This document shows, piece by piece, positions 6,789 through 62,279 of a stretch of DNA of 64,000 nucleotides. Numbering within the stretch: position 1 is the stretch's first letter; each line of letters opens with the position of its first letter. The notes beneath the pieces are model-generated. The model had not been told where the DNA came from. It was given only the letters and a program-made list of their open reading frames with translations, and did not search any database. The translations under genes and the position numbers were made by a program. This DNA is from an uncultured Verrucomicrobiae bacterium (GTDB lineage Bacteria; Verrucomicrobiota; Verrucomicrobiia; Limisphaerales; Palsa-1400): NCBI GenBank assembly GCA_963764165.1, contig CAVXRD010000002.1, positions 3,360,001-3,424,000 of the forward strand, written 5' to 3'.

Positions 6789-6802
6789 AACGCAGAATTT
6801 GC

Positions 6803-39562: not shown

Positions 39563-40663
39563 TTGATCTCTGCATAATATAGTGACACATTATTGTTTTT
39601 ATGCTAATTTTTGGGTATGGGAAATCCTAAAGGCGTAAAACGCGATTTGGCGCAGTTTGCACAACTGGAACGGCGGCGCATGAAAGCCGTCAAACTTTTC
39701 GACCGAGGCTTGAGCCAGGCCGAGGTCGCCCGCCAAGTTGGCGTCCACCGGCAATCGGTCAGCCGCTGGCATAAGGCTTGGCAGGACCATGGCGCGCCCT
39801 CTCTCAAAAAGGCTGGGCGAGCCGGGCGCAAGCCCCGCCTGACCGACGAGAACTTCCGCCAGTTGGAACGGGCCCTCAAACAGGGACCCGAAGCCCATGA
39901 CTTTGGCACCCAGCTTTGGACCACCCGGCGGGTGGCCGCCGTTATCCAACGGTTGACGGGCGTCCAATACCACGAGGACCATGTTTGCCGGCTTCTGCAA
40001 AAGCTGGGTTGGAGCTGCCAGCGGCCCACCACCCAGGCTCGGCAGCGCCATGAGCGGGAGATCACCCGCTGGCGCAAAGTGCGCTGGCCGCAGCTTAAAA
40101 AAAAGCCCTCCGCGAGAGGCGAATCGTGGTTTTCATCGACGAGAGCGGATTGAGCCAGAAGCCGCACCGGGTTCGCACTTGGGCGCCGCGCGGCCAGACC
40201 CCGGTATTGCAGTTCGACTTCAACTGGAAAAAGCTTTCGATCATCGCCGGGGTGACGGTCTGGAACTTTTACTTCCGGCTTTACCCCGGCACCATCAAAG
40301 GCCCGCAGGTGATCGAATTCTTGAAACATCTGCAACGCCACATCCCGGGCAAGCTTCTGGTCATTTGGGACGGTGGTCCCATCCACCGCAGCCGGCTGGT
40401 GCGGGACTATGTGGATCAACTGAAAGGCAAAATCTGGGTGGAACGACTGCCTGCCTATGCGCCCGAACTCAATCCCACCGAGTATGTCTGGGGTTACTTC
40501 AAGCAGCACGAGTTGCCCAATCTTTGCGCGGCCGACCTGGCGAAGTTGAGTCATTGCGGGCGCAAGGCCCTGAGCCGGATGCGGCGCAGACCCAAATTGG
40601 TCACTGCCTTCTGGAAGCAAGCCGAGCTTTGGTGATATTGTCACTATATTATACAGAGATCAA
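39563..40663 (+). mobile_element. Complete IS630-family insertion sequence (1101 bp)
   Basis: 25-bp terminal IRs (ttgatctctgCataatatagtgaca / tgtcactatattatAcagagatcaa, 24/25); TA duplicated at 39561-62 and 40664-65. Confidence 0.95.
39617..40635 (+). CDS. IS630 transposase (HTH ORF plus DDE ORF joined by a -1 frameshift)
   Basis: HTH ORF to 40153; DDE ORF (FIDESG, IWDGG, PELNPTE) to 40635; slippery A8G run at 40097-40105. Confidence 0.92.
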
Positions 40664-46401: not shown

Positions 46402-47781
46402 CTAATTATTCCCCTGCGCGGTGGCTAATTCGCGGCGCGAGAATAGAATAATCCCCGCCAGGCAAAAAAAGCCGCCCAAAATGACGATGATTTGCAGCGC
46501 GGCGCGGCCTAATTGGCTCCACGTAATGCTTCGGCCGGAACTGAGGGACTCGATTGGCGAAAAATCCTGCACCATCCGCAGGATTTTAAGAACCCCCTGA
46601 AATATCGGCACCGCTGCGTAGTCAACAATCGAGTGCCCATAGGCGCTCTTGCTCGAGTCGAAACCAACAATGGTGCCCTGCTCCACCACCGTCGCCACCG
46701 TCCCGCTGGATAGCCCGATGAACAGCACCGCCAGCGACACAAAGGCCGCCACCGGGAAAGAAAGAAAACTCGCCGCCGCCAGGCCGATCGACGCCAGCAG
46801 CGCGAGCCAGCAAAAAATGATGCACAGCCCGCGGATGAAATTGATGCCGAAACCGCTTTCGGGATAGAGCAGTTCCATTCCATCTTCGAGCGGGAAGATC
46901 AAGTCCGTCTCGTTCGGATTCCCCATTTCGATCCAGAGGCGCCCCTTATCGTCAAGCATATTCTCCGGCAGGGTGAATTCCTGGAACGAATCCGGCGGAA
47001 ACGTCTCCGCCAGTTCCATCTGGCGCGGCGAACCGGGTGGGCCGACGCGCCAAAGGGTGGTGTATTGAGTTTCGGGATTCATGTCGCCGGTGTGGAATTT
47101 GATCCGCAACTGCAGTTTCTTGCCCTTGACTTTATCTTGAATGCGGTGAAGATCGACGCCCCAGCGCTTTACCATTCGCGACCCCAGCACCGTATAGTTT
47201 GTCTCGAGGCGCGCGGTGATTTGTCTTCGAACTTCGCTCAGATCGAAATCGCTCATTGCCGAAGTATCCTTGATGTTCTTCTTGATGATCGCGTCGACGT
47301 CCTTGCTGAAGTCCGGTTTGGGTTCCTTGGCGGAAGCGCGGGAGACAAAAATGTCCTCACGCAGATATTTTTGCTGCTCAGGGGAAAGCTGGCTGGCGCG
47401 GAATTGCAAAATGCCGTAAATCGCAATCCCCGCCAAAGCGAGCAAAACCGCGTCCAGCGACAGGAGGCCGAGCCATTTTCCCATCCAGATTTGCCAGCGG
47501 GCGATGGGTTTGACGACGACCATTTGGATCTGGCATTCCTCGACGTCGCGGGCGAGCGTGCCGCAGGAGAGCCACAAGGTTGCAAATCCAAGCAGGGTGG
47601 CGGTCGCGCTGAGTGTGTAAGTCAGAAGAATCTGCACCATGCCCTGCGCCGTGCCGTCATCCTTCAGCAGAAGCGGCAATCCCAGAACGGCCCCGGCCAG
47701 AAGCGCGCAAAGAATCCAAAAAAGCTTGTAGCGAAAGGCGGCCTTCCAAGTCAGGCCGGCAATGGTCGCAATCTTGTTCAT
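46402..47781 (-). CDS. ABC-2-type permease with a large extracytoplasmic domain
   Basis: IAGLTWKAAFR, KPIARWQIWMGKWLG; TM clusters at both ends; FSRRELA C-terminus. Confidence 0.85.
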   Translation of the reverse strand: MNKIATIAGLTWKAAFRYKLFWILCALLAGAVLGLPLLLKDDGTAQGMVQILLTYTLSATATLLGFATLWLSCGTLARDVEECQIQMVVVKPIARWQIWMGKWLGLLSLDAVLLALAGIAIYGILQFRASQLSPEQQKYLREDIFVSRASAKEPKPDFSKDVDAIIKKNIKDTSAMSDFDLSEVRRQITARLETNYTVLGSRMVKRWGVDLHRIQDKVKGKKLQLRIKFHTGDMNPETQYTTLWRVGPPGSPRQMELAETFPPDSFQEFTLPENMLDDKGRLWIEMGNPNETDLIFPLEDGMELLYPESGFGINFIRGLCIIFCWLALLASIGLAAASFLSFPVAAFVSLAVLFIGLSSGTVATVVEQGTIVGFDSSKSAYGHSIVDYAAVPIFQGVLKILRMVQDFSPIESLSSGRSITWSQLGRAALQIIVILGGFFCLAGIILFSRRELATAQGNN

Positions 47782-49013
47782 TTACTGCCCGGCTTGCCCA
47801 AGAGGGAGGAAAGTTTTTCGTTCGCCTTGCTCAATTCCGCCGGCGTGGGCGCGGGAGCGGGTGCGTCTTCGGCGGGCGCGGGCGGCGGAGCAGCAGGCGC
47901 GGGCACGGGCGCCGACGCTTTGGAAAGCGAGGCGAGTTTTCCTTCGTTAATCTTCGGCGCGGGCGCGGCGGCAACGGGAGCTGGCTCTTCCGGTTTCGGG
48001 GCGCTGACAGTCAATCGCTCCAGCAATTGGTCGCCCTTGGCCCCGGCTTCAGCGTCACCGCGCAGATAAGCAGCCACACGGCTGCCCGAAGTTGCGCCGG
48101 AAGTTTCCGACATCGTTTCCTTGGCTTTTCGGACGACATCGAGAAAATAGCTTTCGAGATTTTGCGTCGGATTATCGATTTGCACCTTGTCGGCTTCAAC
48201 GTCCTTGCGGATCAAATTCAGGATCGTCTGCATGTGATCGCGCGGTATCGCTGGCATTGTGATGCGGACGGAATCGGGCTTGGCCAGCAGTTCGCGCAAA
48301 GGCCCTTGCGCGTGAATGCGTCCGCCGTAATAAATCACCACGCGGTCACAGACATCCTCAACATCGGCGAGCAAATGGCTGCTGAGAATGACCGTCTTGC
48401 CGCGGCGGGCGAGGGCGAGAATCAAATCCTTCACTTCGCGGCAGCCAATCGGATCAAGGCCGGCCGTCGGTTCATCCAAAATGACCAAATCGGGATCGTT
48501 GATGAGCGCCTGGGCCAGGCCGATGCGCCGCTGCATGCCCTTGGAAAATTCCCCGACCACGCGCGTGCGAACCTGGCTCAAGCCCACCATTTCCAGCAGT
48601 TGCTCGTTGCGCTCCTTGCGTTTGTCAGCGGGCAGGTCGAACAAGTTGCCGAAAAAATCGAGCGTCTCGTGCGAATCAAGAAAACGATAGAGATAAGACT
48701 CTTCCGGAAGATAACCGATGTGCGCCTTGCTGGGAACGTGCCGGGGCGAATGGCCAAAAACCTCGATGTGGCCGCGCGTCGGCCGCAGCAGGCCGAGCAG
48801 CATTTTCACGGTGGTCGATTTGCCGGAGCCGTTCGGCCCCAGCAACCCAAAGACCTCACCCTTCTTGACTTCGAAATCAACGTTGTCGACTGCCTTGGCC
48901 TTGGGACGGCCCCAGAAATCCGTGTAGATTTTGGTCAGGCCGCGAACGGAAATGACCGTCTGGCCGGATTTGCCGCTGGGCGGCGCTGTCAAAGAGTCAA
49001 CGACAGCGCTCAT
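47778..49013 (-). CDS. ABC transporter ATP-binding protein with a Pro/Ala-rich C-terminal tail
   Basis: GPNGSGKST, FSKGM signature, ILDEPT, SSHLL. Confidence 0.95.
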   Translation of the reverse strand: MSAVVDSLTAPPSGKSGQTVISVRGLTKIYTDFWGRPKAKAVDNVDFEVKKGEVFGLLGPNGSGKSTTVKMLLGLLRPTRGHIEVFGHSPRHVPSKAHIGYLPEESYLYRFLDSHETLDFFGNLFDLPADKRKERNEQLLEMVGLSQVRTRVVGEFSKGMQRRIGLAQALINDPDLVILDEPTAGLDPIGCREVKDLILALARRGKTVILSSHLLADVEDVCDRVVIYYGGRIHAQGPLRELLAKPDSVRITMPAIPRDHMQTILNLIRKDVEADKVQIDNPTQNLESYFLDVVRKAKETMSETSGATSGSRVAAYLRGDAEAGAKGDQLLERLTVSAPKPEEPAPVAAAPAPKINEGKLASLSKASAPVPAPAAPPPAPAEDAPAPAPTPAELSKANEKLSSLLGKPGSK

Positions 49014-51100
49014 GCGGCGGCAGCGGCGGGCCGCAGGGCGGCTTTCGGCGCGTTAGAGGGCGTGGGCGGCGCGGGCGGAGCCGGCAGCGCAGGCGCGAGA
49101 TGCGGCTCCAATTCCTCACCCTGGCGGACGAGGCGGGCGCTGTTGAAAACCACCAGCAGCGAACCCACCACGTGCAAAACAGCGGCGATAATAGGGTCGA
49201 TGATCTTGAGCGCAGCCATAATCAGACCGCCAATCACGAACATAATGCCGATTAGGAAATTCTGATTGATGACAGAACGGGTCTGGCGCGAAAGGCGCAC
49301 CAGGAACGGGAGCCGGCGCAGATCGTTGTTCATCAGCGCAATGGTCGCGCTATGAACCGCGACCTCGCTGCCCGCCGCGCCCATCGCGATGCCCAGATCG
49401 CCTGCGGCCAGCGCCGGAGCGTCGTTGACACCATCGCCGACAACGGCGACGCGGTAGCCTTTGGCCTTCATCGCACGGACAAATTCCACTTTGTTCTGCG
49501 GCAAGCATTCGCCGAGAACTTCCGGGCAGCCGATTTCCTTGGCCACGCGCGATGCCACCGGCTGGCGGTCGCCGGAGACCATCGCAATCCGGCGGACGCC
49601 CGTCGTTTTCAAATCCGCCAGCGCTTCGCGGGCTTCAGCGCGGGTTTGGTCTTCCAACCCGACCCAGCCAATGCACTGATTATTGCGCGCGACGAAAATC
49701 AGACTGAAACCTTCCGTCTCATTCAAATCGACAGACTTGAGGAAATCATCACGGACGCCGTGGTCTTTGAGCCATTGGGCGCGTCCTACAAAAACCAGCG
49801 CGCCATCGATGCTGGCGGCCACGCCGCGCCCGGCGGTTTCCGCGAAATCCTTCGGTTCAGCCAGCGTAACGCCCGCTTCGCCGGCCAATTGGGCCAGAGC
49901 CTTGGCGGTCGGATGGTTGCTGTATTTCTCGGCGGAAGCCGCGATGCGGAGCAAGTCCGCCGGGGCCGTCCCGCCCAGCGGAGCGAGGCGGCTGACGGCC
50001 AGCTTGCCGGTCGTCAACGTGCCGGTTTTGTCAAATACAAAAGCATTGATGCGGGCGGCGAGTTCAATATCGCCCACGTTTTTGATGAGGATGCCAAGGC
50101 GGGCGGCGGCGGAAAGCGCCGCGACCATTGCGCTGGGCGTGGCCAGAATGAAGGCGCATGGGCAGCTCACGATGAAGACCGCAATCACGCGGCTCAGATC
50201 GTTGGTAAACGCCCAAACCAAAGCGCCGATCACCAGCACGAGCGGCGTATAGAAGCCCATGTATTGATCGATGATGCGCATGATCGGCAGGCGCGTTCTT
50301 TCCGCGGCAAGGATCAAATCGCGCACTTTTCCGAGCGTCGTGTCTTCGCCGGCGCGGGTGACTTTGATTTCGAGCACGCCGGTCAAATTCTGTGTGCCCG
50401 CAAAAACTTCGTCTCCGATTTTCTTGTCCACGGGCAAAGATTCACCGGTGATGTTGGCCTGGTTCAATGAACCCTGGCCGCTGACAATCGTGCCATCAGC
50501 CGCAACGTTATCGCCGGGGCGGACACGGATGACATCGCCCACTGAGAGCAGGCGAGTCTCCACTTCCTCTTCCGTGGCGCCCTTCACCCGGCGGGCTTTG
50601 GGTGGCGTCAATTTGATGAGCGATTCAATCGAAGCGCGCGCGCCTTCTGCCGTGCGTGTTTCAATAATCTGCCCGAGAAGCATGAAGAAAGCGATCAAGC
50701 CCGCTTCCTGAAATCCATTCACTTGGCGGACAAAGGTGCTGCCACCGAAATCGGAGGCCGCCGCGCCAAACGCCGCCAAAACCGCCAGCGAAACCAGTTC
50801 GTTTGTCGTCAGCAATCCCTTGCGCAAATCCTCCACCGAAGCCCAAATAATGGGCGCGCCCAAAATGATGGCGCCGAACATCGCGCTGGCCGCCGCAATG
50901 GGATTGCCAGCGTCCAGAATCCAGTTCATCACAAACGAATTCAAAACCAAAACGACGCCCACCAGCGTCCACGCCATGGAAAGCGCGACGTGCGAATGGT
51001 CGTGGCCGTCGTGGCCGTGATCGTGGTGATGGTCGTGGCCGCAACCACACGCGTCATCGAGCGCATCGTTTTCGCGGCTTAATAGTGAGGTCACTCGCAT
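49010..51100 (-). CDS. Heavy-metal-type (P1B) P-type ATPase with a His-rich N-terminus
   Basis: TGES, SCPC, DKTGT, SNHP, GDGVNDAP; N-terminal CGCGHDHHHDHGHDGHDHSH. Confidence 0.92.
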   Translation of the reverse strand: MRVTSLLSRENDALDDACGCGHDHHHDHGHDGHDHSHVALSMAWTLVGVVLVLNSFVMNWILDAGNPIAAASAMFGAIILGAPIIWASVEDLRKGLLTTNELVSLAVLAAFGAAASDFGGSTFVRQVNGFQEAGLIAFFMLLGQIIETRTAEGARASIESLIKLTPPKARRVKGATEEEVETRLLSVGDVIRVRPGDNVAADGTIVSGQGSLNQANITGESLPVDKKIGDEVFAGTQNLTGVLEIKVTRAGEDTTLGKVRDLILAAERTRLPIMRIIDQYMGFYTPLVLVIGALVWAFTNDLSRVIAVFIVSCPCAFILATPSAMVAALSAAARLGILIKNVGDIELAARINAFVFDKTGTLTTGKLAVSRLAPLGGTAPADLLRIAASAEKYSNHPTAKALAQLAGEAGVTLAEPKDFAETAGRGVAASIDGALVFVGRAQWLKDHGVRDDFLKSVDLNETEGFSLIFVARNNQCIGWVGLEDQTRAEAREALADLKTTGVRRIAMVSGDRQPVASRVAKEIGCPEVLGECLPQNKVEFVRAMKAKGYRVAVVGDGVNDAPALAAGDLGIAMGAAGSEVAVHSATIALMNNDLRRLPFLVRLSRQTRSVINQNFLIGIMFVIGGLIMAALKIIDPIIAAVLHVVGSLLVVFNSARLVRQGEELEPHLAPALPAPPAPPTPSNAPKAALRPAAAAA

Positions 51101-51103
51101 AGG

Positions 51104-52174
51104 CTAAGGATTTGGAATGGAAACAGGCGTCGGCGCCTCCAGTTCCCGGCTTAAATTAAAGCGAACTTCCTTCGAATTCGGCGGGATCGTGATTTTGTCC
51201 ACCGCGTTCGTGTAGACGTTGGCAAGAACAGACATTTGTTTGATGCGCTTGAAAAGCTCCGGGTCCCGCTGGTATTGGGCCAGCAGCTTCTTGAAAGCGT
51301 CAGCTTGGGCGGCCATGGAATCGACCCGGTATTTCCGTATCGCATCGGCCACGCGGATGCGGGTATCGGCTTCGCCCTTGGCGTGAGCGATAACGTTCGT
51401 GGCATACGTCTGCGCGTCTTCGACTAATTTCTGGCGCAATTGCATCGCTTTGGTGACCTCATTAAACAGCGGCTTGAGATACATCGGCGCCGATGCGCCC
51501 CAATCCACATAATCCACCGTAAGGCCAAGTTTCTCGTCGTCAACCACCTGATTTACTTGGCGTTGAATGCGTTCGCGGAAAGCATCGCGGTTGGTGGTGA
51601 GAATGGCGTCCACCGTGAATTCGCTGGCGGCGCTCAAGAGGGCGTTATTCAGCGTATTGGTCAAAAACGCCGTCGCGTCGACAAAGCCGAATTGGAAAAC
51701 CGTCGGGTCGGTGATGTGATATTTCGCATCGACCCAGAGATGTATAATATTAGTGTCCGCCGTGATGGCGTAGGTCCAAGATGCCGGATTGAGCTTCTGC
51801 ATGGCCGGCGGCTCGGCCTGGCCGATGCTGCGCTCGTAGGCGGTCTGATACCAGCCAACGGCTGATTCTGCGTTCGTCAGCGAGGTGATTTTCAGGGTGA
51901 CGATTGAATCAATCGGCGCTGGAAAGGCCCAATGAGCGCCCGGCCCCAGCAGTTTTCCGCCATCGACCGGTTTCCCCATCCGCAGGCGAATGGCCGCTTC
52001 CGAAGGGCCGACTGTGAAAAATCCTGAGCCGAGAAAAACCAGCACCAGCGCCACCATGATCACTTGGACAATGATGAAGCTGCTGCGCATCGCCTCCGCC
52101 AGCGCCAGCGAACCGGCGTCTTCCGGCGGCGGAGTCTGCTCCGGGGGCAGTGCGTTGGGATCGAGGTCGCTCAT
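51104..52174 (-). CDS. hflK: SPFH protein, HflK-like
   Basis: Single TM, GPGAHWAFPAPID band-7 start, C-terminal coiled coil (AKGEA...LLAQYQRDP); ATGA overlap with hflC. Confidence 0.75.
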   Translation of the reverse strand: MSDLDPNALPPEQTPPPEDAGSLALAEAMRSSFIIVQVIMVALVLVFLGSGFFTVGPSEAAIRLRMGKPVDGGKLLGPGAHWAFPAPIDSIVTLKITSLTNAESAVGWYQTAYERSIGQAEPPAMQKLNPASWTYAITADTNIIHLWVDAKYHITDPTVFQFGFVDATAFLTNTLNNALLSAASEFTVDAILTTNRDAFRERIQRQVNQVVDDEKLGLTVDYVDWGASAPMYLKPLFNEVTKAMQLRQKLVEDAQTYATNVIAHAKGEADTRIRVADAIRKYRVDSMAAQADAFKKLLAQYQRDPELFKRIKQMSVLANVYTNAVDKITIPPNSKEVRFNLSRELEAPTPVSIPNP

Positions 52175-53088
52175 TTGTCTTTCTTGCTCGGTTCCTCCAT
52201 CTTCAGCCACTGCAACGGCGAGGTGCTGAGGTCGAGAACCAGCGTCGTCTTCTTTTTCAAAAATTGCTCGAGCGCGTCCATCTGCATGTTGAAGGCCGCC
52301 AATTCCGGATTCTCCTGCATGATTTGCAGCGACTTCATCATTTCGGCTTCGCCTTCCCCGCGAATCTTGAACGCTTCGGCCTCGGCGTCATACAAAAGTT
52401 TGGCGGCCTGGCCATCGGCTTCCGCCCGGATGCGGGTGGCATCCAATTCACCCTGCGACGTCACGTTGGTGATATAATAGACCCGCTCCGATTTCATGCG
52501 GTCGAAAACTTCCGCCGTCACGCTTTCCGGGAGGCCGATCTTTTGAATTTGCACAAACTTGATTTCGACGCCGAAGTTGTTGGTCGCGTTGTGGACGCGG
52601 TTTTGGACATCGTCCAGGATTTCCTTTTCGATGCTGGCGAACTTCATTTCACCCGGGGTGGCGGAAATGAAATCTGAGAAAACGTGGCGGCCCGCCACGG
52701 CGTTCTTGGAACTGCGAACGATTTCCGTCAAGGTTTTTTCCGCTTCTGGAATCGAGCCGTCCGCAACTTTCACGAAGAAATTCGTCGGATCATTGATGCG
52801 GTAGCCGACATAGACTGAAAGCAGGATAATGCTCTGGTCGTGGAGTTTGATTTCTTCGAATTTTCCCTTGGCTTCAAAATTCTGGATGCGCTGGTCGAGC
52901 TTGAAAACGCGCTCGATGGGCGAGGGCAGGCGGAAGCCGGGGCCGGGAGTGGATTTGACGCGGGCAAGGCGTCCGAACCGGGTGACGACCGCCACTTCGG
53001 ACGGGCGCACCTGGTAGACGAACAGCATCAGGCCAAAGACAATCAACAAGACGAAGGCTACTGCCAATGTAAGGGGCTTGCGTTTCAT
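52171..53088 (-). CDS. hflC: SPFH protein, HflC-like
   Basis: VVTRFG, PGxxFRLPSPI, VFDRMKSER, IRGEGEAE. Confidence 0.85.
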   Translation of the reverse strand: MKRKPLTLAVAFVLLIVFGLMLFVYQVRPSEVAVVTRFGRLARVKSTPGPGFRLPSPIERVFKLDQRIQNFEAKGKFEEIKLHDQSIILLSVYVGYRINDPTNFFVKVADGSIPEAEKTLTEIVRSSKNAVAGRHVFSDFISATPGEMKFASIEKEILDDVQNRVHNATNNFGVEIKFVQIQKIGLPESVTAEVFDRMKSERVYYITNVTSQGELDATRIRAEADGQAAKLLYDAEAEAFKIRGEGEAEMMKSLQIMQENPELAAFNMQMDALEQFLKKKTTLVLDLSTSPLQWLKMEEPSKKDK

Positions 53089-53089
53089 A

Positions 53090-54961
53090 TCATTTCGAAG
53101 TCGGCTTAGTCAGGTTCCCGATTAAGTCATCGCGGATTTTGTCCTCAAGATTGAAGATCGGGATGTTCGGCGCATTGGTGGTGGCGATAATGTATTTGCG
53201 CGAGTCGGCGCTGTTTTCAACCAGCGCCCTCAAATAAGCCTGCTGTTCGTAAATTCCTTTCGGGCCTGGCGAGGCGGCGTAGGCTTTTTGCTGGCTGGCA
53301 AAAAGAATGGCCCGGGCGGCGGAGTTGGTGGCCGCCCCGTGCAAATCAGCCTGGGCGCTGGCAACCTTCTGGAAGCTTTCGCCTGTGGCAGTGGCGTTGG
53401 TGGCAATGGCATGCGCCCGCGCCTGCAAAATCTTCGACTCGCGCTTTTCCGAGGCGCCGACCACTTGCTCAAAGACGTCGGCCACCTTCGACGGCGGGTG
53501 AACATCCTCCAAACCCACGAAAAGAATTCGCGCCCCAAGCTGCTTCGCATCCGCCTCGGATTGGATATTTTGCTGCAAGGTGCTTTCGGCGTCAGCCCGG
53601 CCGCGGGACATCAAATCGTCAAAATTCGCGCTGGAAAGGTAACGGACAACCGCGCGTTCGGCGATGTTCGTCAAAAGTGTCACCGGATCTTCGTTGGTGT
53701 AGGCCCAACTGGACAGATTGGTAATCTGGTATTGAACCGGAATGCTGACGGAAACGAGGCTGACCGGCGGGCTCTTCTCCTCAATTTGCGCGGCGGAGGG
53801 GGCGTCGGCATTCAACTCGACGCTCGCCACCAAATAATTCTCTTCCTTGGCGTGCTTGACGGTCCAAGTAACGGTGTCGTTTGGATCCGGCTCCGCGCCA
53901 ACGAGGAAAGTCTGGATGCGGTCGGTGTGATAAACCGTCGTTTGGCCAATCGGCCACGGGGGTTTCACATGGAGCCCCGGCCCAATCAAGCCTGTTTCGC
54001 CCATCGGCTTGCCGAAACATTCCAGCAACGCCTCATCGCCCGGGTCAATCACCACAAAGCATGTTGAAAGCACCAAAATGGCAAATTGCGCCAGCAGCAG
54101 CCAACCCAACGCGCTTTCCAAAAAACGGTAGAACCAAGTATCAGAAACTTTGAAGCCAAATTGATAGTCCAACGCGTGCGCTGCCGTCGTGATGATCGCC
54201 TCCGGCTGGCCCAGCAAACCGACCAGACGGCTCTCGTAAAGCAGCCGCGTTTCGCGGCCTTCCACGCGGACGCGGTATCCTTCCAGCACGAGCGCTAGCA
54301 ACGTTTCGACCGCCGCAATCCCGGAAATCACACAGAAAACCCGCGCCACGATAATATCGATTCGGGCGACGCCCGACAAATACGCCGCGATCGCCCCAAT
54401 CACGATCAGGCACGAATACGCGCTCAACAGCATGTAGGCCGAGCTGGGGCGCAAGAGCTTGATGCCTTTGAGACGGGCCAGTCCGCTCGAATACTTGCCC
54501 AGCAGGAACAGAATCATCCCCATCAACCCGAGGAAGGACATCGCCAGCGTCGCCCGTTCTTTGATAAGAGGTGGAACGCCCGGCAGCTTCTGCCACGCCA
54601 GCCATGCGCCCAGCGCTTCAAGGACAAAGAGAATCGCCGCGAAGCTCGGAATGATGAAGCGCTCGAATTGTTCGCGGGAGCGCCGGGCAGGGAACGTGTC
54701 GCCGCCAGCGGTGGAAAAAAGCGACTCGCTGCCGCGGGACTTGCTCAGTTCCTCCATCTCCATTTTCTCGAACTCTTCCCGCTCAAGCAGGCCGATGTGG
54801 AAAAAGTTGAGGAGCGCCACCAGAAGCCCAAAGCCGGTCAAAATCGCCGCCATGGTGGCAGCGCCCGAGCTCAGGTAGCTGGAAATCAGCAGCAGGGCCA
54901 AAGTTGCGCCCAGCAGCACCACCAGGTTCATCAACGATGTCTTTTTTGTATTTTGGTCCAT
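53090..54961 (-). CDS. HflK-like SPFH protein fused to an N-terminal multi-TM domain
   Basis: About 7 hydrophobic segments precede PGDEALLECFG...GPGLHVKPPWP and DVHPPSKVADVFEQVV. Confidence 0.8.
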   Translation of the reverse strand: MDQNTKKTSLMNLVVLLGATLALLLISSYLSSGAATMAAILTGFGLLVALLNFFHIGLLEREEFEKMEMEELSKSRGSESLFSTAGGDTFPARRSREQFERFIIPSFAAILFVLEALGAWLAWQKLPGVPPLIKERATLAMSFLGLMGMILFLLGKYSSGLARLKGIKLLRPSSAYMLLSAYSCLIVIGAIAAYLSGVARIDIIVARVFCVISGIAAVETLLALVLEGYRVRVEGRETRLLYESRLVGLLGQPEAIITTAAHALDYQFGFKVSDTWFYRFLESALGWLLLAQFAILVLSTCFVVIDPGDEALLECFGKPMGETGLIGPGLHVKPPWPIGQTTVYHTDRIQTFLVGAEPDPNDTVTWTVKHAKEENYLVASVELNADAPSAAQIEEKSPPVSLVSVSIPVQYQITNLSSWAYTNEDPVTLLTNIAERAVVRYLSSANFDDLMSRGRADAESTLQQNIQSEADAKQLGARILFVGLEDVHPPSKVADVFEQVVGASEKRESKILQARAHAIATNATATGESFQKVASAQADLHGAATNSAARAILFASQQKAYAASPGPKGIYEQQAYLRALVENSADSRKYIIATTNAPNIPIFNLEDKIRDDLIGNLTKPTSK

Positions 54962-54998
54962 TGCAAATTAGACTGCCCGGCCTCGATTTAGTTCCAAC

Positions 54999-55961
54999 TC
55001 AGTTCAACTCCCGGTCCTCAAACAACATTAGGGCCATCGCGAGGGTGGCGCCGATATAAGCGCACGCATACCCGAACGCTTTGGCCAGATAGCTCAACGG
55101 TATTGTATTCTTACCTTCCAAGGCGTCCGCAAGCCAGAATAATTGCCAGTTCGGAGTCACCGCGTAAAGAATAGAAGCCCACCAGGAACCCGCTTTCGCG
55201 CGTTCGCCCCAGAAATAATCGGACATCAATCCCAGCAAAAACAGCGCTGAAATGATGGCCAGCGTCGGAATCACGTCCAGCCGGGTCGAGCAAGCCAGCG
55301 CCAGCGCCGCCAAGATCAGCAACGCCATCAACAGCAGCGCGGAAGCCGGAATGACCCGCCAATCGATGCCTTCGTAGCTCTCACCCATCCGAATCGCCTC
55401 GCGCGGAATGAACTGCAAAACCGCAAAAGCCACCACCGCCATGATCACCACCCCAAAAACCGCATCCGAAACAAACGGGCGGCGCAGAAAGTAATTGCTG
55501 AATGCCGCCAATACATATGCCAGCGCAATGGACCCAGTGAACACGCCCAAGCCCGGATAATCGACATCCCCGTAAGCATCAAAGGCCATGCGTGTGGCCA
55601 TCAGCGCGCCAATCATGTTGACAAAGGCGAGGAGGGTAAGGGCCATGGCCAGGCCGGCATACTTGCCAAACAGAAACTTGCTGCGGCTGACGGGCTTGGC
55701 CATGACCGCCAAGGCCGTTCCGCTGCGAATTTCCCGCGCCACAGAAGCCGAAGCGCTCAAGACCGCGCCGAACAAACCCGCCAGGAACATCACCGCCAAG
55801 GCGGTGTTTTTGACCAGCTTGGGCTCATCGCCAAATCCGAAATAATTGACGCAAGCCAGAGCGACCTCAAACAAAGTCGAGAGCGTCATTAGCAGCAGGT
55901 AGACCGGCTGCCGAATCAGCTCCATGAAGGCGTTCCCAGCTATGGTTATAAATTGGCGCAT
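54999..55961 (-). CDS. ABC-2-type permease
   Basis: IAGNAFMELIRQP, REIRSGT...KPVSRSKFLFGKY, FEDREL; start moved to MRQFITI. Confidence 0.85.
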   Translation of the reverse strand: MRQFITIAGNAFMELIRQPVYLLLMTLSTLFEVALACVNYFGFGDEPKLVKNTALAVMFLAGLFGAVLSASASVAREIRSGTALAVMAKPVSRSKFLFGKYAGLAMALTLLAFVNMIGALMATRMAFDAYGDVDYPGLGVFTGSIALAYVLAAFSNYFLRRPFVSDAVFGVVIMAVVAFAVLQFIPREAIRMGESYEGIDWRVIPASALLLMALLILAALALACSTRLDVIPTLAIISALFLLGLMSDYFWGERAKAGSWWASILYAVTPNWQLFWLADALEGKNTIPLSYLAKAFGYACAYIGATLAMALMLFEDRELN

Positions 55962-56232
55962 GTTGCTTGGGCAGGCAAGACTGCCGGAAGCTGGGCCAAG
56001 CTTAAAGAAAAATCCCCTTTTTGCAATGTGTCCTTTCGGCGCACAGGGGGGCAGGGCGTGTCGCACTCTTGGTCGGAGGACTGGTTCTTCCGCTCCGCTG
56101 GGAGCGAAATCAAAGATTCCGGGTCTGCGGCGCTTCAGGGCCAAGCCGGCATGAAGAATTTTGTCGCGCACCCTCTGGCTGCCTCATTGGATGAGGCGGC
56201 CTTGTGAGCGGCGGTGATCTCCGGTATTATCA

Positions 56233-57594
56233 ATGCACATGAATCGGACGGCAAAATTTCGGCTGACGGCGCTTGGGATCGCCGCCGCCTTGCTGGGCGT
56301 GCTGATCGCGCTGGCCAGCTTTCTGTCGCAGCGCCAGTCCGGCCTGCTCCGCCGGCAACTGGCCCAGGTCGATTCCGAAAGCGCCAGCATCTCCGAACAT
56401 TTCAAGGATTCGCTGCGCGAGGTCAACACGATCCGCCTCCGTTACATCATGGATGGCGATCCGGCGGCGTGGGAGCAATTTCAGAAATCCAGCCATGACT
56501 TGAGCGATTGGTTGAACAGTCAAACCCCTTCCCTGACCACATCCCGCGAGAAGGAATTGTTGCGCGACGTGAAAACCGCCTATTTCGATTACCTGGATGT
56601 CTCGCGGCAGATGTACCAAATCTCGCAAACGAACCGCCAGCCGGCCGATATCCTCAACGAATTCACCAACTCGCGCGCCCAATCACAGCATCTGTTCGAT
56701 CTCGGCCAATCGCTGGCCCGCGCGCATTCCGAATCGCGCAATCTAGTTCTGGCCCAGGCCAGCACGACGCTCAACCAGTTGCGGCAGTCCGTGCTGGCGC
56801 TGGTGGGATTGCTTTACCTCTTTGGCATTGCATTGGCGGCGCTGGCCTACCGTGATCTTGTCGTGCCGCTTCGGGCGAAATTGGTGGAAACGCAATCGCT
56901 GGCGGAACGCCACGAAAAACTGGCCTCGCTGGGCATGCTGGCGGCGGGGGTGGCCCATGAAATCCGCAATCCGCTCACCGCGATCAAAGCCGCCGTTTTC
57001 ATCCAGCAAAAGAAATTCACTCCCGGGTCGCAGGAAGCCGCCGACTCCGCCTTGGTGCAGCGCGAGATTTCCCGTCTGGAGCGCATCGTAACCGAGTTTC
57101 TGCAATTCGCGCGCCCATCAGAACCGGAACTTGCCAGCATGCAAAGCGACCAGCCGCTGAGGGAAGTTCAGTCTCTCCTCGGCCCAAGCCTGGCTCGCCA
57201 GAACATTCGCCTTTTGGTGGAGGATTCCTCGCCGATGCCCGTCAAGGTGGACGGCGAACAGATGAAACAAGTCCTCATCAATCTCGTTCAAAACGCCGCC
57301 GACAGCATCGGGCATGACGGCGCGATCACGCTGCGCGCGCGGCCGGACCGCATCCCGCTCGGAAACGGCGAGACGGATGTGGTGGTGTTGGAAGTCGCGG
57401 ACACCGGGCAAGGCATTGCGCCAGACGTGGAAAAGCGGTTGTTTGATCCGTTCTTCACCACCAAGCCGGAAGGGACGGGTCTTGGACTTTCCATCGCCGC
57501 CTGCATTATTCAAAAGCACGGCGGCGCGCTGCAGTACCAAACCCGCGTCAATCACGGCACCACCTTCGGCGTCATTCTCCCGCGCGCCGCCTGA
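56233..57594 (+). CDS. Two-TM sensor histidine kinase
   Basis: TM-helical periplasmic domain-TM; AHEIRNPL, NLVQNA, DTGQG, FFTTK, GTGLGL. Confidence 0.92.
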   Translation: MHMNRTAKFRLTALGIAAALLGVLIALASFLSQRQSGLLRRQLAQVDSESASISEHFKDSLREVNTIRLRYIMDGDPAAWEQFQKSSHDLSDWLNSQTPSLTTSREKELLRDVKTAYFDYLDVSRQMYQISQTNRQPADILNEFTNSRAQSQHLFDLGQSLARAHSESRNLVLAQASTTLNQLRQSVLALVGLLYLFGIALAALAYRDLVVPLRAKLVETQSLAERHEKLASLGMLAAGVAHEIRNPLTAIKAAVFIQQKKFTPGSQEAADSALVQREISRLERIVTEFLQFARPSEPELASMQSDQPLREVQSLLGPSLARQNIRLLVEDSSPMPVKVDGEQMKQVLINLVQNAADSIGHDGAITLRARPDRIPLGNGETDVVVLEVADTGQGIAPDVEKRLFDPFFTTKPEGTGLGLSIAACIIQKHGGALQYQTRVNHGTTFGVILPRAA

Positions 57595-57604
57595 TTTTGG
57601 CCAC

Positions 57605-59032
57605 ATGAGCACGGGGGCAAAAATATTGTTGATAGAAGATGACCCGGGCATCAGCGACACCTTGCGGCGTTTGCTGGCCGAGGAAGGGCACGAGGTGGCC
57701 GTTGAACGCCGCGGCGACGAAGGATTGGCTCGCGCGGGACGCGATATCTTCAATCTCGTCATTACGGATTTGCGTCTGCCGGGTTTGTCGGGTCTCGATT
57801 TAGTGCGTCAGCTTCATGCCGCCCAGCCGCGTCTCCCGATTATTTTGACGACCGCCTACGGCACGACAGAGACGGCCATCGAAGCCACCAAATTCGGCGC
57901 GTATGATTACTTGCTGAAGCCGTTTGATTTCCCGCAATTGATCGAACTCGTTCGCAAAGCCGCCGATAGCAATCGCCTGATGTCCGAACCGGTCACGCTC
58001 GGCGCTGGCGGAGCAAACGACGCGCTCGTTGGCCAGAGCGCGGCAATGCAGGCAATTTACAAGGAAATCGGGCGCGTCGCGTCGCGGCCGGTGCCGGTCT
58101 TGATTCGCGGCGAAACGGGCACAGGCAAGGAATTGATCGCCCGCGCGATTTATCAGCATAGCGATCGCTCGGGCGCGCCGTTCATCGCGGTCAATTGCGC
58201 CGCGATTCCCGAGACGCTGCTGGAGAGCGAATTGTTCGGCCACGAAAAAGGCGCCTTCACCGGCGCGCAGGCGCGGCGCATCGGGAGATTCGAGCAGGCC
58301 CATCGCGGCACCATTTTGCTGGATGAAATCGGCGACATGACCCCGGCCACGCAAGTCAAGCTGGTGCGTTTTTTGCAGGAGCGCCGCTTGCAGCGGCTCG
58401 GCGGGCGGGAGGATATTCCTCTTGACGTTCGCGTGCTGGCGGCGACCCATCGCGATTTGGAAACGGCCATCGCGCAAAAGGAATTTCGCGAGGATCTGTA
58501 TTACCGGCTGAATGTCGTTGCCATCAACCTGCCGCCGCTGCGCCAGCGCCGCGAGGATATTGGCGATTTGACGCGCTACTTCCTGCGCAAGCACGGCCCG
58601 AGCCTTGGCCACGCCGAGCCAAGCATCCAATCCGAGGCGATTGAATTTCTCGAGGCGGAACCGTGGCCGGGAAATGTGCGGCAGCTTGAAAACGTCGTCC
58701 GCAAAGCGCTGCTGCTGGCGCAAAATTACACAATCAACGCCGGCCATGTCCGCACTGTGCTTGACAAGCCGCCCGCCCCGGATTTTTCGCCAAAGCGCGC
58801 CTTCGGCGATTACATCGGCGAGCTGCTGGCGTCGGCAAAACGGGGGGAATTGTCGGACGCGCACGCCCGCGCCCTCGGGGCGGCGGAGCGGGAGTTGTTC
58901 ACCCGCGCCATCGCGGAAGCCGGGGGCAACCAGGCGAAAGCCGCCCGCTGGCTTGGCGTCACCCGCGTGACGATGAAAGCGAAATTGGTGCAGTTTGGCC
59001 TGTTCGAAAGTCCGGAGAAATTGGAGGGGTAG
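57605..59032 (+). CDS. Sigma54-dependent NtrC-family response regulator
   Basis: REC (IEDD, TDLRLP), GETGTGKE, GAFTGA, WPGNVRQL, Fis-type HTH. Confidence 0.95.
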   Translation: MSTGAKILLIEDDPGISDTLRRLLAEEGHEVAVERRGDEGLARAGRDIFNLVITDLRLPGLSGLDLVRQLHAAQPRLPIILTTAYGTTETAIEATKFGAYDYLLKPFDFPQLIELVRKAADSNRLMSEPVTLGAGGANDALVGQSAAMQAIYKEIGRVASRPVPVLIRGETGTGKELIARAIYQHSDRSGAPFIAVNCAAIPETLLESELFGHEKGAFTGAQARRIGRFEQAHRGTILLDEIGDMTPATQVKLVRFLQERRLQRLGGREDIPLDVRVLAATHRDLETAIAQKEFREDLYYRLNVVAINLPPLRQRREDIGDLTRYFLRKHGPSLGHAEPSIQSEAIEFLEAEPWPGNVRQLENVVRKALLLAQNYTINAGHVRTVLDKPPAPDFSPKRAFGDYIGELLASAKRGELSDAHARALGAAERELFTRAIAEAGGNQAKAARWLGVTRVTMKAKLVQFGLFESPEKLEG

Positions 59033-59368: not shown

Positions 59369-60190
59369 CTATTTCTTGTCGTCTTTGGGTTTGTCCGCCA
59401 CTGCGGCAGCCGGCTTGTCTGATTCCGGTTTTGCTTCGAGGGCCTGCTTTTCGCCTTTCAAGATGTCTTCCGCTGGAATCAAAATCGCGGTCATATACTC
59501 GCGGGCGTTGGCGGCGCTCGATTCCTCGCCGTTCACCGCGCGCATGACGAACATCCCAACGACATTTCCGTTCAGCGCGAAGGCCGGCGACCCAAGCGCC
59601 GTCGTGCTCTGGCTGCTGTCCGGAATGTAAAACGTGCGCGGCTTCTGGATGACGGCGGCGATGCGCTCGGCGGAAACCGAATAGGCGCGGCCCGCGGCGC
59701 GATTGAGGCGGTTCAGTGTCACCACCTGCTCAAGCACTTTTAGCGGCGATGATTTTGTCAAATCAATGGCCGCCATGGGCGCCGCCGGCTTGGTCTTGGG
59801 CCGGACGTAGGCGAGGTCCAAATCCTTGTCGCGCAGGACAATTTCCGCGGGCAATTCCGTCCCGTCATCAAGGAGAATCTTGATGTCCGAAACCTCGATT
59901 TCGGTCTTGCCGAATTTTTCGTTGATGCGGCGGTAAAGCTCCGTGGGATCCACCGAGGAAAGCGCAACCACAGCCAGGCCGGAAGGGTCAATCACAGTTC
60001 CCGTGATGTCCTGCTTGCTTTCACGCGCGCCGTTGCGGCCGTCGGAGACTTTCATGACGGCTTGCACCGTAACGACGGCGTGCTGGTTTTTTTGAAAAAT
60101 ATCTCCGCCCTTGTCGGACAATTCGTCCGCGCCGCACGCAGCCGCCACCAAGGTCGTTCCCAGCAAAAGCATGTTCAATTTCGATTTCAT
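59369..60190 (-). CDS. Exported trypsin-like (S1) domain protein, probably catalytically inactive
   Basis: TGTVIDPSG, DKDLDLA, GSPAFALNGNVVG align to HtrA motifs, but the His and Ser positions are substituted. Confidence 0.7.
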   Translation of the reverse strand: MKSKLNMLLLGTTLVAAACGADELSDKGGDIFQKNQHAVVTVQAVMKVSDGRNGARESKQDITGTVIDPSGLAVVALSSVDPTELYRRINEKFGKTEIEVSDIKILLDDGTELPAEIVLRDKDLDLAYVRPKTKPAAPMAAIDLTKSSPLKVLEQVVTLNRLNRAAGRAYSVSAERIAAVIQKPRTFYIPDSSQSTTALGSPAFALNGNVVGMFVMRAVNGEESSAANAREYMTAILIPAEDILKGEKQALEAKPESDKPAAAVADKPKDDKK

Positions 60191-60209
60191 AGTTCTTCAG
60201 TTTCTAAAT

Positions 60210-62279
60210 TTAATGTTTCCACTCCGGCTCAAATTCCAAATAAGCGCTGCGCACCCCGCGCATGACTTTCATCTCGACTGCCGATTTGTGGCTTGCGGCA
60301 ATTTTCTCCATCACCTGCCGCAGCGAATCCACGTCTCCCACTGGCTGCTTGTCCACTTCCACCACCAAATCGCCGACATACAAATTGGCCAGCTCGGCCC
60401 AGCTTCCGGGTTTCACCTCTTCAATCAATGCGCCCTGCTGGCTTTTGTCCCATTGCTCCTCGGCGGAATCAAAGAAAGAAACGTTGCGGGCGGTAAATTC
60501 AAATTCGTCGTTGCGATATTTTTTCATTTCGCGGCGCAAGCGCGGCGAACGCTCCAATTCCACGTTGATCTTCATGGGCTTTTGGTCGCGGAGGATTGAA
60601 AGCTCCACCGTTTTGCCAACGTCGTACTGGCGAATCAATGTGGTCAATTCGTCTTCGTGCTCCTGGCCGGAGGCGGTGAGTTTTTCGCCGTCGACAGAGA
60701 GAATAAAATCGCCCGCTTTCAATCCCGCTTTGTCGGCGGTGCTGTCCGCGTAAACGCGGGTGATGTAAAATCCCTTGAGGCTCGGCGTGCCCAATTGCTG
60801 CGCTATTTCGCGGGTGATGACGCGCGTCTCCACCGGCAGCCACGCCTTCGTGACTTCGAGCCCTGGGTCTTTTTCGTCCTGGATGCCGACGCGCACCACC
60901 GCGAGGTATCGGGCCGCGCGCCGCACAAATGTCGCGATCACCGGCACCGGCTCGGGTTTTCCGGCTGACAATTTTTGTGTGAGCGCTTCCAGATCCTCGA
61001 CGGATTTCACGGGGCTGCCATTGACTTCGATCAGCACATCGCCGCGTTCCAGGGAAGGCTTCGCTTCTCCCGCTGGTCCGCCAGGGCGGACACTGCTAAC
61101 CAGAACGCCATCGGTATTTGTTCGTTTCATTTCCATGGCCAGGAGAAACGAAAAATCACGCGCCGTGATTCCCCAGCGTTTCAATTCGCGCTGTTTGGGA
61201 AAAATTTCGCCGCGCTCCCTGGGCGTCATGGAGACGTCCATCTTTTTCCCTTCGCGTTCAATGACGGCCGGAACCGGTTTGCCAATGGGGAGGCTGGACA
61301 CCCGTCCCATGAAATCGGGCATTTGCTCGTCAAAATGAACATCCACCGCTTTGCCATCGAGGCTTGTCAAAATATCGCCCGCCTTGATTCCCGCCTTGGC
61401 GGCTGGAGAATCCTCCCACACGCCGCCGATGAGAATGCCTTTTTTATCATGTTCCTCCTTGAACAGCGCCTGCGGCTCAATCCCGAGCCAGCTTCGCTGC
61501 ACCTTGCCTTTGGCCATTAATTCCCTCGCCACCGCTTTCGCGATGTTGCCCGGAATCGCGCCGGACAAACCGTAGCTGATTTCGTTGATGCCAATGATTT
61601 CGCCGCGGAGATTCACCAGCGGGCCGCCGGAGTTTCCGCCGTAAATCGCGGCATCGTGGCCGATCCAGCGGACAAGTCCGCCGACATCTTCGCCGTCAAG
61701 TTGAAATCGGTTGCCTTCTCCCCAAAAGCGGGGCAGCACCATTTCCGTATTGCTGATGATGCCGAGTGTGACTGATTGCGAAAGCGCCATTGGGCTGCCC
61801 ATGGCCAGGACGGAGTCGCCGACGCGCAGCGTGGCGGAATCGCCGAAACTGGCCGGAGTGAACTCGCGCGGCTTTTCCGGCTTCAATTTAATGACGGAAA
61901 TATCGGTCAACGGATCGGTGCCGATCAATTCCGCTTCAATCTCCTCGCGATTCCACAAGGTGCAAAACATGCGGCTGGCGTGGCCCGCCACATGATGGTT
62001 GGTGATGATGTAGCCGTCCTTGGTGATGATCGCGCCGCTGCCGACTTCCTGCATTTTGACTTCGCGCCCTTCACGGTATTCGGTCGAGACAACGCGGATG
62101 CGGACGAGCGCCTTGCGGACTTTGTCGTTGGCGACATCGATTTGCGCGCGCATGGAGGCAAGAGGCTCCCTGGCCGCAAAACTCGGAGTGGCCGGAGGAA
62201 GCATGGCCAAACCAGCCAGCAGCATCATCGCCGCGCGCCTGGAAAAAACCTCCGGAGCCTTTCTGAAGACAGAACGCAT
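60210..62279 (-). CDS. HtrA/DegP-like serine protease with four PDZ domains
   Basis: TNHHV, DPLTDISV, GGNSGGP triad; four GxxI...P/TAxxAG..GD units. Confidence 0.92.
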   Translation of the reverse strand: MRSVFRKAPEVFSRRAAMMLLAGLAMLPPATPSFAAREPLASMRAQIDVANDKVRKALVRIRVVSTEYREGREVKMQEVGSGAIITKDGYIITNHHVAGHASRMFCTLWNREEIEAELIGTDPLTDISVIKLKPEKPREFTPASFGDSATLRVGDSVLAMGSPMALSQSVTLGIISNTEMVLPRFWGEGNRFQLDGEDVGGLVRWIGHDAAIYGGNSGGPLVNLRGEIIGINEISYGLSGAIPGNIAKAVARELMAKGKVQRSWLGIEPQALFKEEHDKKGILIGGVWEDSPAAKAGIKAGDILTSLDGKAVDVHFDEQMPDFMGRVSSLPIGKPVPAVIEREGKKMDVSMTPRERGEIFPKQRELKRWGITARDFSFLLAMEMKRTNTDGVLVSSVRPGGPAGEAKPSLERGDVLIEVNGSPVKSVEDLEALTQKLSAGKPEPVPVIATFVRRAARYLAVVRVGIQDEKDPGLEVTKAWLPVETRVITREIAQQLGTPSLKGFYITRVYADSTADKAGLKAGDFILSVDGEKLTASGQEHEDELTTLIRQYDVGKTVELSILRDQKPMKINVELERSPRLRREMKKYRNDEFEFTARNVSFFDSAEEQWDKSQQGALIEEVKPGSWAELANLYVGDLVVEVDKQPVGDVDSLRQVMEKIAASHKSAVEMKVMRGVRSAYLEFEPEWKH

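Follow-up and report, generated by a model that had tools for sequence, protein, structure and literature searches.

An SPFH trio of HflK/C type tied to a P1B-type ATPase in a conserved operon core of Verrucomicrobiota, with an apparent counterpart in Pseudomonas

What is the role of HflK/C-like membrane proteins that are encoded together with a metal pump and an ATP-binding cassette (ABC) system? This question is raised by a seven-gene operon in a 64,000-nt stretch of the genome of an uncultured Verrucomicrobiae bacterium of the order Limisphaerales (contig CAVXRD010000002.1, positions 3,360,001 to 3,424,000; hereafter the window, meaning this stretch at its full length). The seven open reading frames (ORFs) all lie on the minus strand, in frame and free of internal stops, and encode, in the order of transcription, an ABC-2-type permease (permA), three SPFH proteins (K1, C and K2), a P1B-type ATPase (the pump), an ABC ATPase and a second permease (permB) (Table 1). 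The junctions from permA to permB are 37, 1, −4, 3, −4 and −4 nt, the three overlaps being ATGA, so that the ORF coordinates confirm the layout given in an initial annotation of the window. As the gene order is kept in relatives, the operon is not a product of chance. The initial annotation proposed a dedicated SPFH cage whose client is the P-type ATPase and/or the ABC complex. The tie to the ATPase is borne out by conserved synteny across phyla, a clade of linked ATPases, ATPase–SPFH fusions and the fact that 29 of the 121 order genomes also have a canonical-like hflK apart from the trio. The ABC complex has no such support as the client of the cage: the ABC module and the trio each occur alone.

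The four genes K1-C-K2-P1B are the core module, and the seven-gene operon consists of two nested modules. Two sets of loci were compared: 20 of the order, chosen among strong hits for long contigs, and 40 chosen across other families of the phylum; related genomes are not independent, and the occurrence counts are therefore no statistical test. An ortholog of C is found in 120 of the 121 genomes of the order. All 20 order loci contain permA-K1-C-K2-P1B, with permA directly before K1 in each, and the ABC ATPase and permB are present in 16 and 15 of them, respectively. In the phylum set, K1, C, K2 and the pump occur together at 34 loci, and three others have a pump–K fusion that precedes C and K2; a fourth fusion of this kind is found at locus L220. 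Three phylum loci have no pump: one is cut by a contig end, one has a fusion of a cation diffusion facilitator (CDF) domain to a K subunit, and one is unexplained. The ABC ATPase is present at 17 of the 40 phylum loci and all seven genes at three. Also, the order K1-C-K2-P1B without the ABC module is found in records of Burkholderia, Paraburkholderia, Rhizobium, Klebsiella and Pseudomonas, and the K2 of this layout is found in 17 of 201 Pseudomonadaceae genomes. This gene-neighbourhood survey, proposed by the initial annotation, thus joins the SPFH genes to the P1B ATPase and separates them from the ABC genes.

Several variants of the locus were noted in the course of the survey. At locus L042 (5351-7448; genome G409) the pump gene reads in two pieces, reflecting a frameshift or an assembly error. 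Genome G177 has two diverged trio–pump copies (L081 and L082), in which LPC and IPC replace CPC, and has no helical protein of the kind described below. An intact CDF domain is fused to a K subunit at two loci (L075, 5688-11203; L031, 6427-15116), followed by C and K and accompanied by a PpiC-type rotamase; in Aquibium, the CDF-K module is located on a conjugative plasmid and is followed by genes for a ZntA-type pump and a copper chaperone.

The pumps encoded beside the SPFH genes are set apart from other pumps of the same genomes. A careful tree was built from 36 rows, a subset of a 69-row quick tree that left out six near-duplicate or KdpB rows. In the careful tree, a branch with 94/93 support (not starred) divides all 18 SPFH-linked pumps from the rest; the 15 of them that are unfused, from bacteria of the Planctomycetota–Verrucomicrobiota–Chlamydiota (PVC) group and from proteobacteria (Pseudomonas, Burkholderia and Rhizobium), are grouped at 100/100; the linked clade is separate from ZntA, CopA and unlinked paralogs of the same genomes. 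Support in the quick tree is 82 for all 35 linked pumps and 100 for the 32 unfused ones. The trio thus has a pump lineage of its own. The pumps of Pseudomonas syringae-group records and of a look-alike Pseudomonadaceae locus (L234) are positioned behind a K-C-K trio and fall in the linked clade, and the window's pump is likely, from its sequence, a member of an HmtA-type clade.

The pump is a P1B ATPase, passing TIGR01525 (528.6 bits versus a cut-off of 346.25) and containing DKTGT, HP and the Cys-Pro motif of transmembrane helix (TM) 4. It has CPC, a TM6 His and a His-rich N-terminus, a feature that is common among linked pumps, and has neither a TM5 Lys nor Tyr-Asn. All 54 orthologs compared retain the catalytic Asp and HP and have Val or Ile at the TM5 position of the ZntA Lys; 44 have an intact CPC, and 50 have a TM6 His in place of the Asp of ZntA and the Met of CopA. 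This His is also present in proteobacterial linked pumps. CPC with TM5 Lys and TM6 Asp is the P1B-2 motif, and TM5 Tyr-Asn with TM6 Met the P1B-1 motif. Assignment to P1B-2 (ZntA/CadA), although CPC is present, is contradicted by Val/Ile for the TM5 Lys, by His/Gln for the TM6 Asp and by a branch apart from ZntA, and assignment to P1B-1 (CopA) by His for the TM6 Met, the lack of the TM5 Tyr-Asn and a separate branch. The P1B-6 motif is N-X18-H-N-X-(S/T) between TM5 and TM6 (PMC13460109); the window's pump reads HVVGS without the TM5 Asn and falls outside that class, an Asn follows the His in 18 of the 54 orthologs, and the proteobacterial linked pumps read HNLST or HNVGT, so that the clade is only P1B-6-like; the pump tree contained no P1B-6 reference.

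The trio has the layout of SPFH3 proteins, with Band_7 after a membrane anchor, then a coiled coil, and K and C types in one operon. In a quick tree with Shimodaira–Hasegawa-like approximate likelihood ratio (SH-aLRT) support, the K and C clades are each supported at 99; the window's K1 groups with proteobacterial K1 (97), K2 with proteobacterial K2 (93), and C lies in the HflC clade but outside the canonical C group (87). The phylogeny for which the initial annotation called thus places K1 and K2 in groups of their own, apart from canonical HflK/HflC. The profile scores agree with this: K1 and K2 are below the hflK cut-off (TIGR01933; 85.9 and 122.8 versus 159.4) and C is below the hflC cut-off (TIGR01932; 116.2 versus 134.4), with some K2 orthologs of the order passing narrowly. 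The nearest solved relatives of K1 are structures of E. coli HflK (7vhp, 7wi3 and 9cz2; E 2e-10). The hairpin region, short in E. coli HflK, is extended in K1 and K2 by long inserts, and the K1 residues W366, H370 and H488-P-P hardly vary. When the C-terminal part was searched for patterns without fixing their position, W-x3/4-H turned up in 53 of 56 PVC K1, all 23 proteobacterial K1 and two of three pump-fused K subunits, and elsewhere in one of nine canonical-like K, neither of two CDF-fused K and two of 59 K2; H-P/A-P was found in 50 of 56, 23 of 23 and three of three, and elsewhere in none of nine, none of two and three of 59, respectively. At the sequence level, this motif pair tracks the pump clade.

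K1 begins with a multi-helix membrane domain. In a model of the first 302 residues (predicted local distance difference test score, 89), six membrane helices and two short helices precede the anchor. The best fold matches are SLC30A10 (Z 14.9; root-mean-square deviation (rmsd) 3.0, 177 aligned) and ZnT3 (Z 14.2; rmsd 4.0, 196 aligned), scores that are near the tool's caution level for helical bundles (Z ~13), and the next non-CDF match is at Z 9.7. In a Foldseek search, YiiP/ZnT proteins fill the top rows, with a best E of 4e-3 and none under 0.001, and the profile of the domain weakly matches two true CDF transporters. The proteobacterial K1 N-terminal domain is the same domain as that of PVC K1 (hhalign 96%); against two CDF domains, the PVC K1 profile reached only 55.7% in hhalign and the proteobacterial domains were negative (0.07%). 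Pfam gave no match for the N-terminal domain, Cation_efflux and ZT_dimer being absent, and hits in the ESM Atlas reached only 0.82, a lead at most. As for the TM2/TM5 metal site (site A), no conserved His/Asp is found at the aligned TM5 positions. Taken together, K1 residues ~1-235 likely have, on modelling, a CDF fold devoid of the metal site. A complex prediction of this N-terminal domain with the ATPase scored 0.00, which gives no verdict and was counted neither way.

By sequence and gene order, the four-gene core appears to be orthologous to Pseudomonas aeruginosa PA2439-PA2435, that is, PaFlo5-7 and HmtA. PA2437-PA2439 correspond to PA14_33110/33080/33070 (PMC9431628), and PA14_33070/33080/33110 have been named PaFlo5-7, a single operon that is conserved in P. 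syringae and P. knackmussii; the triple mutant forms ~20% less biofilm and is attenuated in Galleria virulence (PMC13086221). In a znuA mutant, PA2437-PA2439 are up 9-14-fold and hmtA 5.6-fold (PMC4542158), zinc depletion raises the proteins of the PA2437-PA2439/hmtA cluster (PMC11761036), and the PA2439 promoter is bound and shifted by Zur (PMC8531726). Reviews describe HmtA as an importer of Zn/Cu (PMC10393844, PMC8456098). The word ATPase is absent from the available text of the PaFlo report (PMC13086221), and ATPases and Verrucomicrobia are unmentioned in that of an SPFH survey (PMC2636767). A literature search, mostly without subscription papers, turned up no report of the operon in Verrucomicrobiota and none that connects an SPFH cage with a P1B ATPase. 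Contrary to the initial annotation, the system is thus not wholly undescribed: its four-gene core appears to be this P. aeruginosa locus, which comes with expression and deletion data although it lacks an explanation, and no scaffold–pump link was described in the papers found. At the look-alike locus L234, the C subunit (5827-6861) has a His-rich N-terminal stretch, possibly a cytoplasmic metal-binding tail.

The reading favoured here, with moderate confidence, is that K1, K2 and C form an HflK/C-like cage that holds the P1B pump, with the inactive CDF domain as adaptor, and so helps to provide a divalent metal that is scarce, likely zinc. The E. coli HflK/C complex is a 24-subunit alternating cage (PMC12048511, PMC13220708). 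The trio would likewise assemble at the inner membrane, on its periplasmic side, and, since K and C alternate in the E. coli structures, K1 and K2 would share the K positions. The main partner of the cage would be the co-encoded pump, which the CDF-fold domain of K1, its metal site lost, might dock in the caged membrane patch; the W-x3-H insert and the HPP motif of K1 may face the lumen and bind either metal or the pump. The P. aeruginosa data suggest that the task would be supply and allocation of the metal, most likely zinc, rather than detoxification. Transport could run in either direction: HmtA is a reported importer, and delivery to periplasmic clients would fit as well. A housekeeping role fits the operon more than a resistance island does, given the plain promoter candidate, the lack of a shared operator and the near-universal presence in the order.

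Several points weigh against this reading. The assembly of the cage, its partner, its substrate and the direction of transport are all inferred. Locus L093 has the trio but no pump within its 19.5 kb. The pump-fused K subunits lie near canonical HflK (92, 89) and not with K1, and their pumps are only a sister group in the careful tree; the pump–K fusions are thus better seen as an analogy than as a direct ancestor. A strict metal assignment is weakened by the degraded CPC of 10 of the 54 pump orthologs. Orthology with HmtA rests on synteny and related records, the tree having been built without PA2435 itself. In P. aeruginosa, hmtA mRNA is not repressed by zinc (PMC8531726), and the importer claim for HmtA rests on overexpression and needs confirmation (PMC10393844, PMC8456098). 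Zinc control is not transferable to the order, as no shared operator palindrome is found upstream. Finally, the trio is the only HflK/C set of a genome that has two FtsH genes.

The leading alternative, which is unlikely, builds on this last point: the trio would be a divergent FtsH-binding HflK/C cage controlling the turnover of its neighbours (the pump and the permeases), and the operon would reflect shared regulation of a zinc protease and zinc supply. The host genome (7.0 Mb, 97% complete) contains two FtsH genes over the cut-off, one hflX outside the window and nine Band_7 matches, of which K2, K1 and C are the best hflK-model matches, none over the cut-off. Of the outcome that the initial annotation had set against its own proposal, namely that the genes be the genome's only hflKC and co-purify with FtsH but not with the ATPase, the first half holds in this profile search. 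In a strict hflK search, 92 of the 121 order genomes, the window's included, have the trio only, and PA2437-39 are annotated as FtsH modulators (PMC9431628, PMC11761036). The initial annotation had argued from the lack of FtsH; no match to ftsH or hflX is indeed found within the 64-kb window, but ftsH is also missing from all 67 loci L031-L097, three canonical hflKC loci included, and from the E. coli hfl region, and its absence nearby is therefore uninformative. The residue of HflK that contacts FtsH may be Arg141. At this position the window's K1 and K2 have Gln and Thr, five of 16 other PVC K1/K2 rows have Arg, and four of six PVC canonical-like K proteins do not. One report names Arg191 as the contacting residue (PMC12048511), yet the E. 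coli HflK sequence used here has Ala at position 191.

The FtsH explanation is countered by the second, strongly scoring canonical-like hflK of 29 order genomes, which was seen in plain K-C pairs at nine fetched loci with both genes. Coexistence of the trio with canonical-like hflKC argues for a separate job, with caution because the 92 genomes show only the trio. P. aeruginosa also has both PaFlo5-7 and hflKC, and deletion of PaFlo5-7 neither raises pyocyanin nor cuts swimming, unlike deletion of hflKC (PMC13086221). The long hairpin inserts of K1 and K2 also speak against the FtsH explanation, and the CDF-fold domain and the pump fusions are left unaccounted for.

The ABC genes raise a different question, whether they belong to the same machine. 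An eighth gene, for a membrane-anchored helical protein of ~500 aa, follows permB at 28 of 29 fetched loci that have permB. In this genome it is located at C2:3297484-3298990, ~107 kb from the operon and on the opposite strand, and in a genome of the same genus it is also on another contig than the operon. The helical protein is present in 119 of 121 order genomes, and in 82 of 118 its gene is no more than 12 kb away from C, most of the others being on other contigs of fragmented assemblies. In a phylum sample of 301 genomes, 181 have the helical protein and 115 the K1 domain (after removal of two true CDF transporter hits). None of 20 loci chosen for a helical gene away from the trio contains SPFH or pump genes, and three of them (L248, L250 and L251) have a free-standing permA-ABC-permB-helical operon. 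Conversely, the proteobacterial loci and genomes G177 and G252 have the core without the ABC module, and the operon is interrupted between the pump and the ABC ATPase in several genomes. As each module can stand alone, the best interpretation of the order in the window is that a K1-C-K2-P1B cassette sits inside the ABC module, after permA and before the ABC ATPase. The four-gene ABC module (permA, ATPase, permB and helical protein) is likely a separable, loosely coupled add-on.

The products of this module have few recognizable relatives. Both permeases match ABC2_membrane_2 (Pfam). The ABC ATPase has intact Walker A/B motifs and H-loop and, in a 34-row alignment, a conserved C-terminal extension; it reached no NCBIfam equivalog cut-off among the best 25 matches listed. 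The permB model (pLDDT 84.6) has a predicted extracytoplasmic beta-sandwich insert that weakly matches jelly-roll domains; a Foldseek search gave no clear relative, and the only PDB sequence match is NosY (E 8.4e-4, over the first 121 columns), a weak, family-level match. For the helical protein, no Pfam family and no NosD match were found, and TPR was weakly matched in five of 27; its profile has no meaningful PDB match and no match to the TPR proteins of two paralogous ABC clusters of this genome. In the ESM Atlas it falls in clusters without names, one auto-named 'IRE family' without a common Pfam. NosDFY-like systems combine a NosY-family permease with a beta-helix partner, NosD, and are encoded in a nos cluster. 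With a weak NosY match and a partner without a NosD match, the module is not assigned to the NosDFY-like systems.

In a further alternative, which is improbable, all eight proteins would form one machine, the pump bringing metal to the periplasmic space inside the cage and the ABC proteins with their helical partner driving, like NosDFY, an ATP-dependent metal loading of periplasmic clients. The helical protein accompanies the K1 domain in 113 of the 115 genomes with the latter and its gene is often near C, loci of other orders also show the nested arrangement permA-(K1-C-K2-P1B)-ABC-permB-helical, NosY is the one sequence match of permB, and a paralogous ABC-2/TPR cluster of this genome is located beside ZIP and CobW genes. 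Set against these are the 68 of 181 helical-protein genomes without the K1 domain, the free-standing four-gene operons, the cores without the ABC module, the breaks between pump and ABC ATPase and the weakness of the NosY match. Also improbable is an organelle-like metal-handling machine in which the SPFH cage would enclose a patch of membrane and periplasm, dock the pump through the CDF-fold pseudo-transporter and hold metal on lumen-facing histidines, and the ABC-2/helical module would hand the metal to periplasmic clients; if true, several Verrucomicrobiota lineages would have it as a core housekeeping system, and HmtA would be recast as a caged pump. Least credible is a pump clade that has drifted away from transporting metals, in a module whose substrate is not a metal and whose role lies in organising the membrane or envelope. 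In favour of this are the degraded CPC, the TM5 ligand absent in 54 of 54 orthologs, the lost metal site of K1, a single copy in nearly every genome of the order behind a plain promoter, and a cyclopropane-synthase-family gene after the operon at several Pseudomonas loci; against it, the TM6 His and catalytic Asp are retained, His-rich pump N-termini are common, the P. aeruginosa genes respond to zinc starvation and Zur (PMC4542158, PMC11761036, PMC8531726), and metal ABC and copper-chaperone genes adjoin the P. sprentiae core locus.

Some other loci with ABC or helical genes were noted. The two paralogous clusters of an ABC ATPase, an ABC-2 permease and a TPR protein are at L099 (6130-9420) and L100 (8076-10459); the former runs into a ZIP transporter gene, with genes for a CobW-type GTPase and a MacB-like ABC protein nearby. 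The displaced helical gene (L098, 9485-10990) is directly upstream of genes for a FixI-type pump and a cbb3 oxidase, probably incidentally; this P1B gene was rejected as part of the system because it encodes the FixI-type pump of the cbb3 oxidase cluster. At locus L270 (8455-15335; genome G341), ABC-permB-helical is followed by a canonical-like hflK-hflC pair, and the trio and pump are on another contig.

The cage–pump reading, if right, bears on HflK/C-type cages in general. FtsH is the only structurally known client of a bacterial cage of this type found in the literature, and the P1B pump would be a second candidate; as it has a genetically tractable Pseudomonas counterpart and a trio deletion strain exists, other contents of SPFH cages are now directly testable. 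HmtA may have behaved oddly because it was assayed without its scaffold, and the CDF fold would be put to a new use if it serves here as an adaptor that transports nothing.

Table 1. Features of the seven-gene operon, with positions in the window.
Feature	Position	Strand	Basis
permA, ABC-2-type permease, 320 aa, first gene of ABC module	54999-55961	-	PF12679 31 bits, over cut-off
K1, HflK-type SPFH protein with N-terminal multi-helix membrane domain, 623 aa	53090-54961	-	Band_7 at residues 304-518, over cut-off
K1 predicted CDF-fold six-helix domain, residues ~1-235, without TM2/TM5 metal site	54257-54961	-	model and fold search
C, HflC-type SPFH protein, 305 aa, one membrane anchor	52171-53088	-	Band_7 84.6 bits, over cut-off
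K2, HflK-type SPFH protein, 356 aa, one membrane anchor	51104-52174	-	Band_7 54.8 bits, over cut-off
P1B-type ATPase, 696 aa, SPFH-linked clade	49010-51100	-	E1-E2_ATPase and Hydrolase (Pfam); TIGR01525
ABC ATPase, 411 aa	47778-49013	-	PF00005 (ABC_tran) 114 bits
permB, ABC-2-type permease, 459 aa	46402-47781	-	PF12679 25.2 bits, under cut-off
sigma70-like promoter candidate TTGCAA-N16-TAAGCT upstream of permA	55999-56026	-	pattern in relatives' upstream regions

The promoter pattern is present in nine of 21 upstream regions of the order, against a mean of 0.09 in 1000 shuffles, a test that is partly circular because the pattern was taken from the same sequences. No common palindrome was found upstream of the operon in the order, the best one occurring in three of 21 regions. 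A histidine kinase and a sigma54 response regulator (56233-59032) are transcribed divergently from the operon; they are not conserved neighbours in relatives and were rejected as part of the system. Tandem trypsin-like proteases, one with four PDZ domains, are encoded at 59369-62279. A two-ORF insertion at 39604-40644, which resembles an insertion sequence and which we take to be IS630-like, has a helix-turn-helix ORF (39611-40153) and a DDE-like ORF (40126-40635); it is located directly upstream of a gene for a sedolisin-like secreted protein, and the same element is copied at locus L099.

Compared with known systems, the trio resembles the E. coli HflK/HflC-FtsH cage in having SPFH and coiled-coil regions after one anchor and adjacent K-type and C-type genes. 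Unlike HflK/C, it has two K-type genes, a CDF-fold domain on K1 and hairpin inserts, scores below the hflK/hflC cut-offs, lacks the hfq-hflX context and forms a separate lineage that coexists with canonical pairs. With the CDF/ZnT transporters (YiiP, ZnT3 and SLC30A10), K1 residues 1-235 share the predicted six-helix membrane fold and a weak profile match, but not the TM2/TM5 His/Asp site or ZT_dimer, and they are fused to an SPFH subunit. The ABC module is like the NosY/GldF-like ABC-2 systems in its permease family and a large extracytoplasmic partner; it differs in that its two permeases are unlike each other, permB has a jelly-roll insert, the helical partner belongs to no Pfam family, and no equivalog cut-off is reached.

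The closest counterpart is the PA2439-PA2434 locus, where K-C-K SPFH genes are likewise followed by the gene for the P1B ATPase HmtA (PA2435). Pseudomonas relatives share the K1 N-terminal domain, the W-x3-H and HPP motifs and the pump clade; locus L234 has the same layout plus an intervening small gene, and its pump is 38% identical to that of the window. The P. aeruginosa locus differs in that it has no permA/ABC/permB/helical module, and distribution is patchy in Pseudomonadaceae, whereas it is near-universal in the window's order. In the available texts on P. aeruginosa, the trio is treated as FtsH modulators or as of unknown function and HmtA as a lone importer. The best functional precedent is provided by the mycobacterial PacL-Ctp effluxosomes, in which a co-encoded membrane scaffold stabilises and clusters its own P1B ATPase (PMC13460109). 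PacL is a small, single-pass DUF1490 protein on the cytoplasmic side and its role is in efflux, with no SPFH cage, CDF-fold domain or ABC module; what the two systems would have in common is a scaffold encoded together with the pump that it serves.

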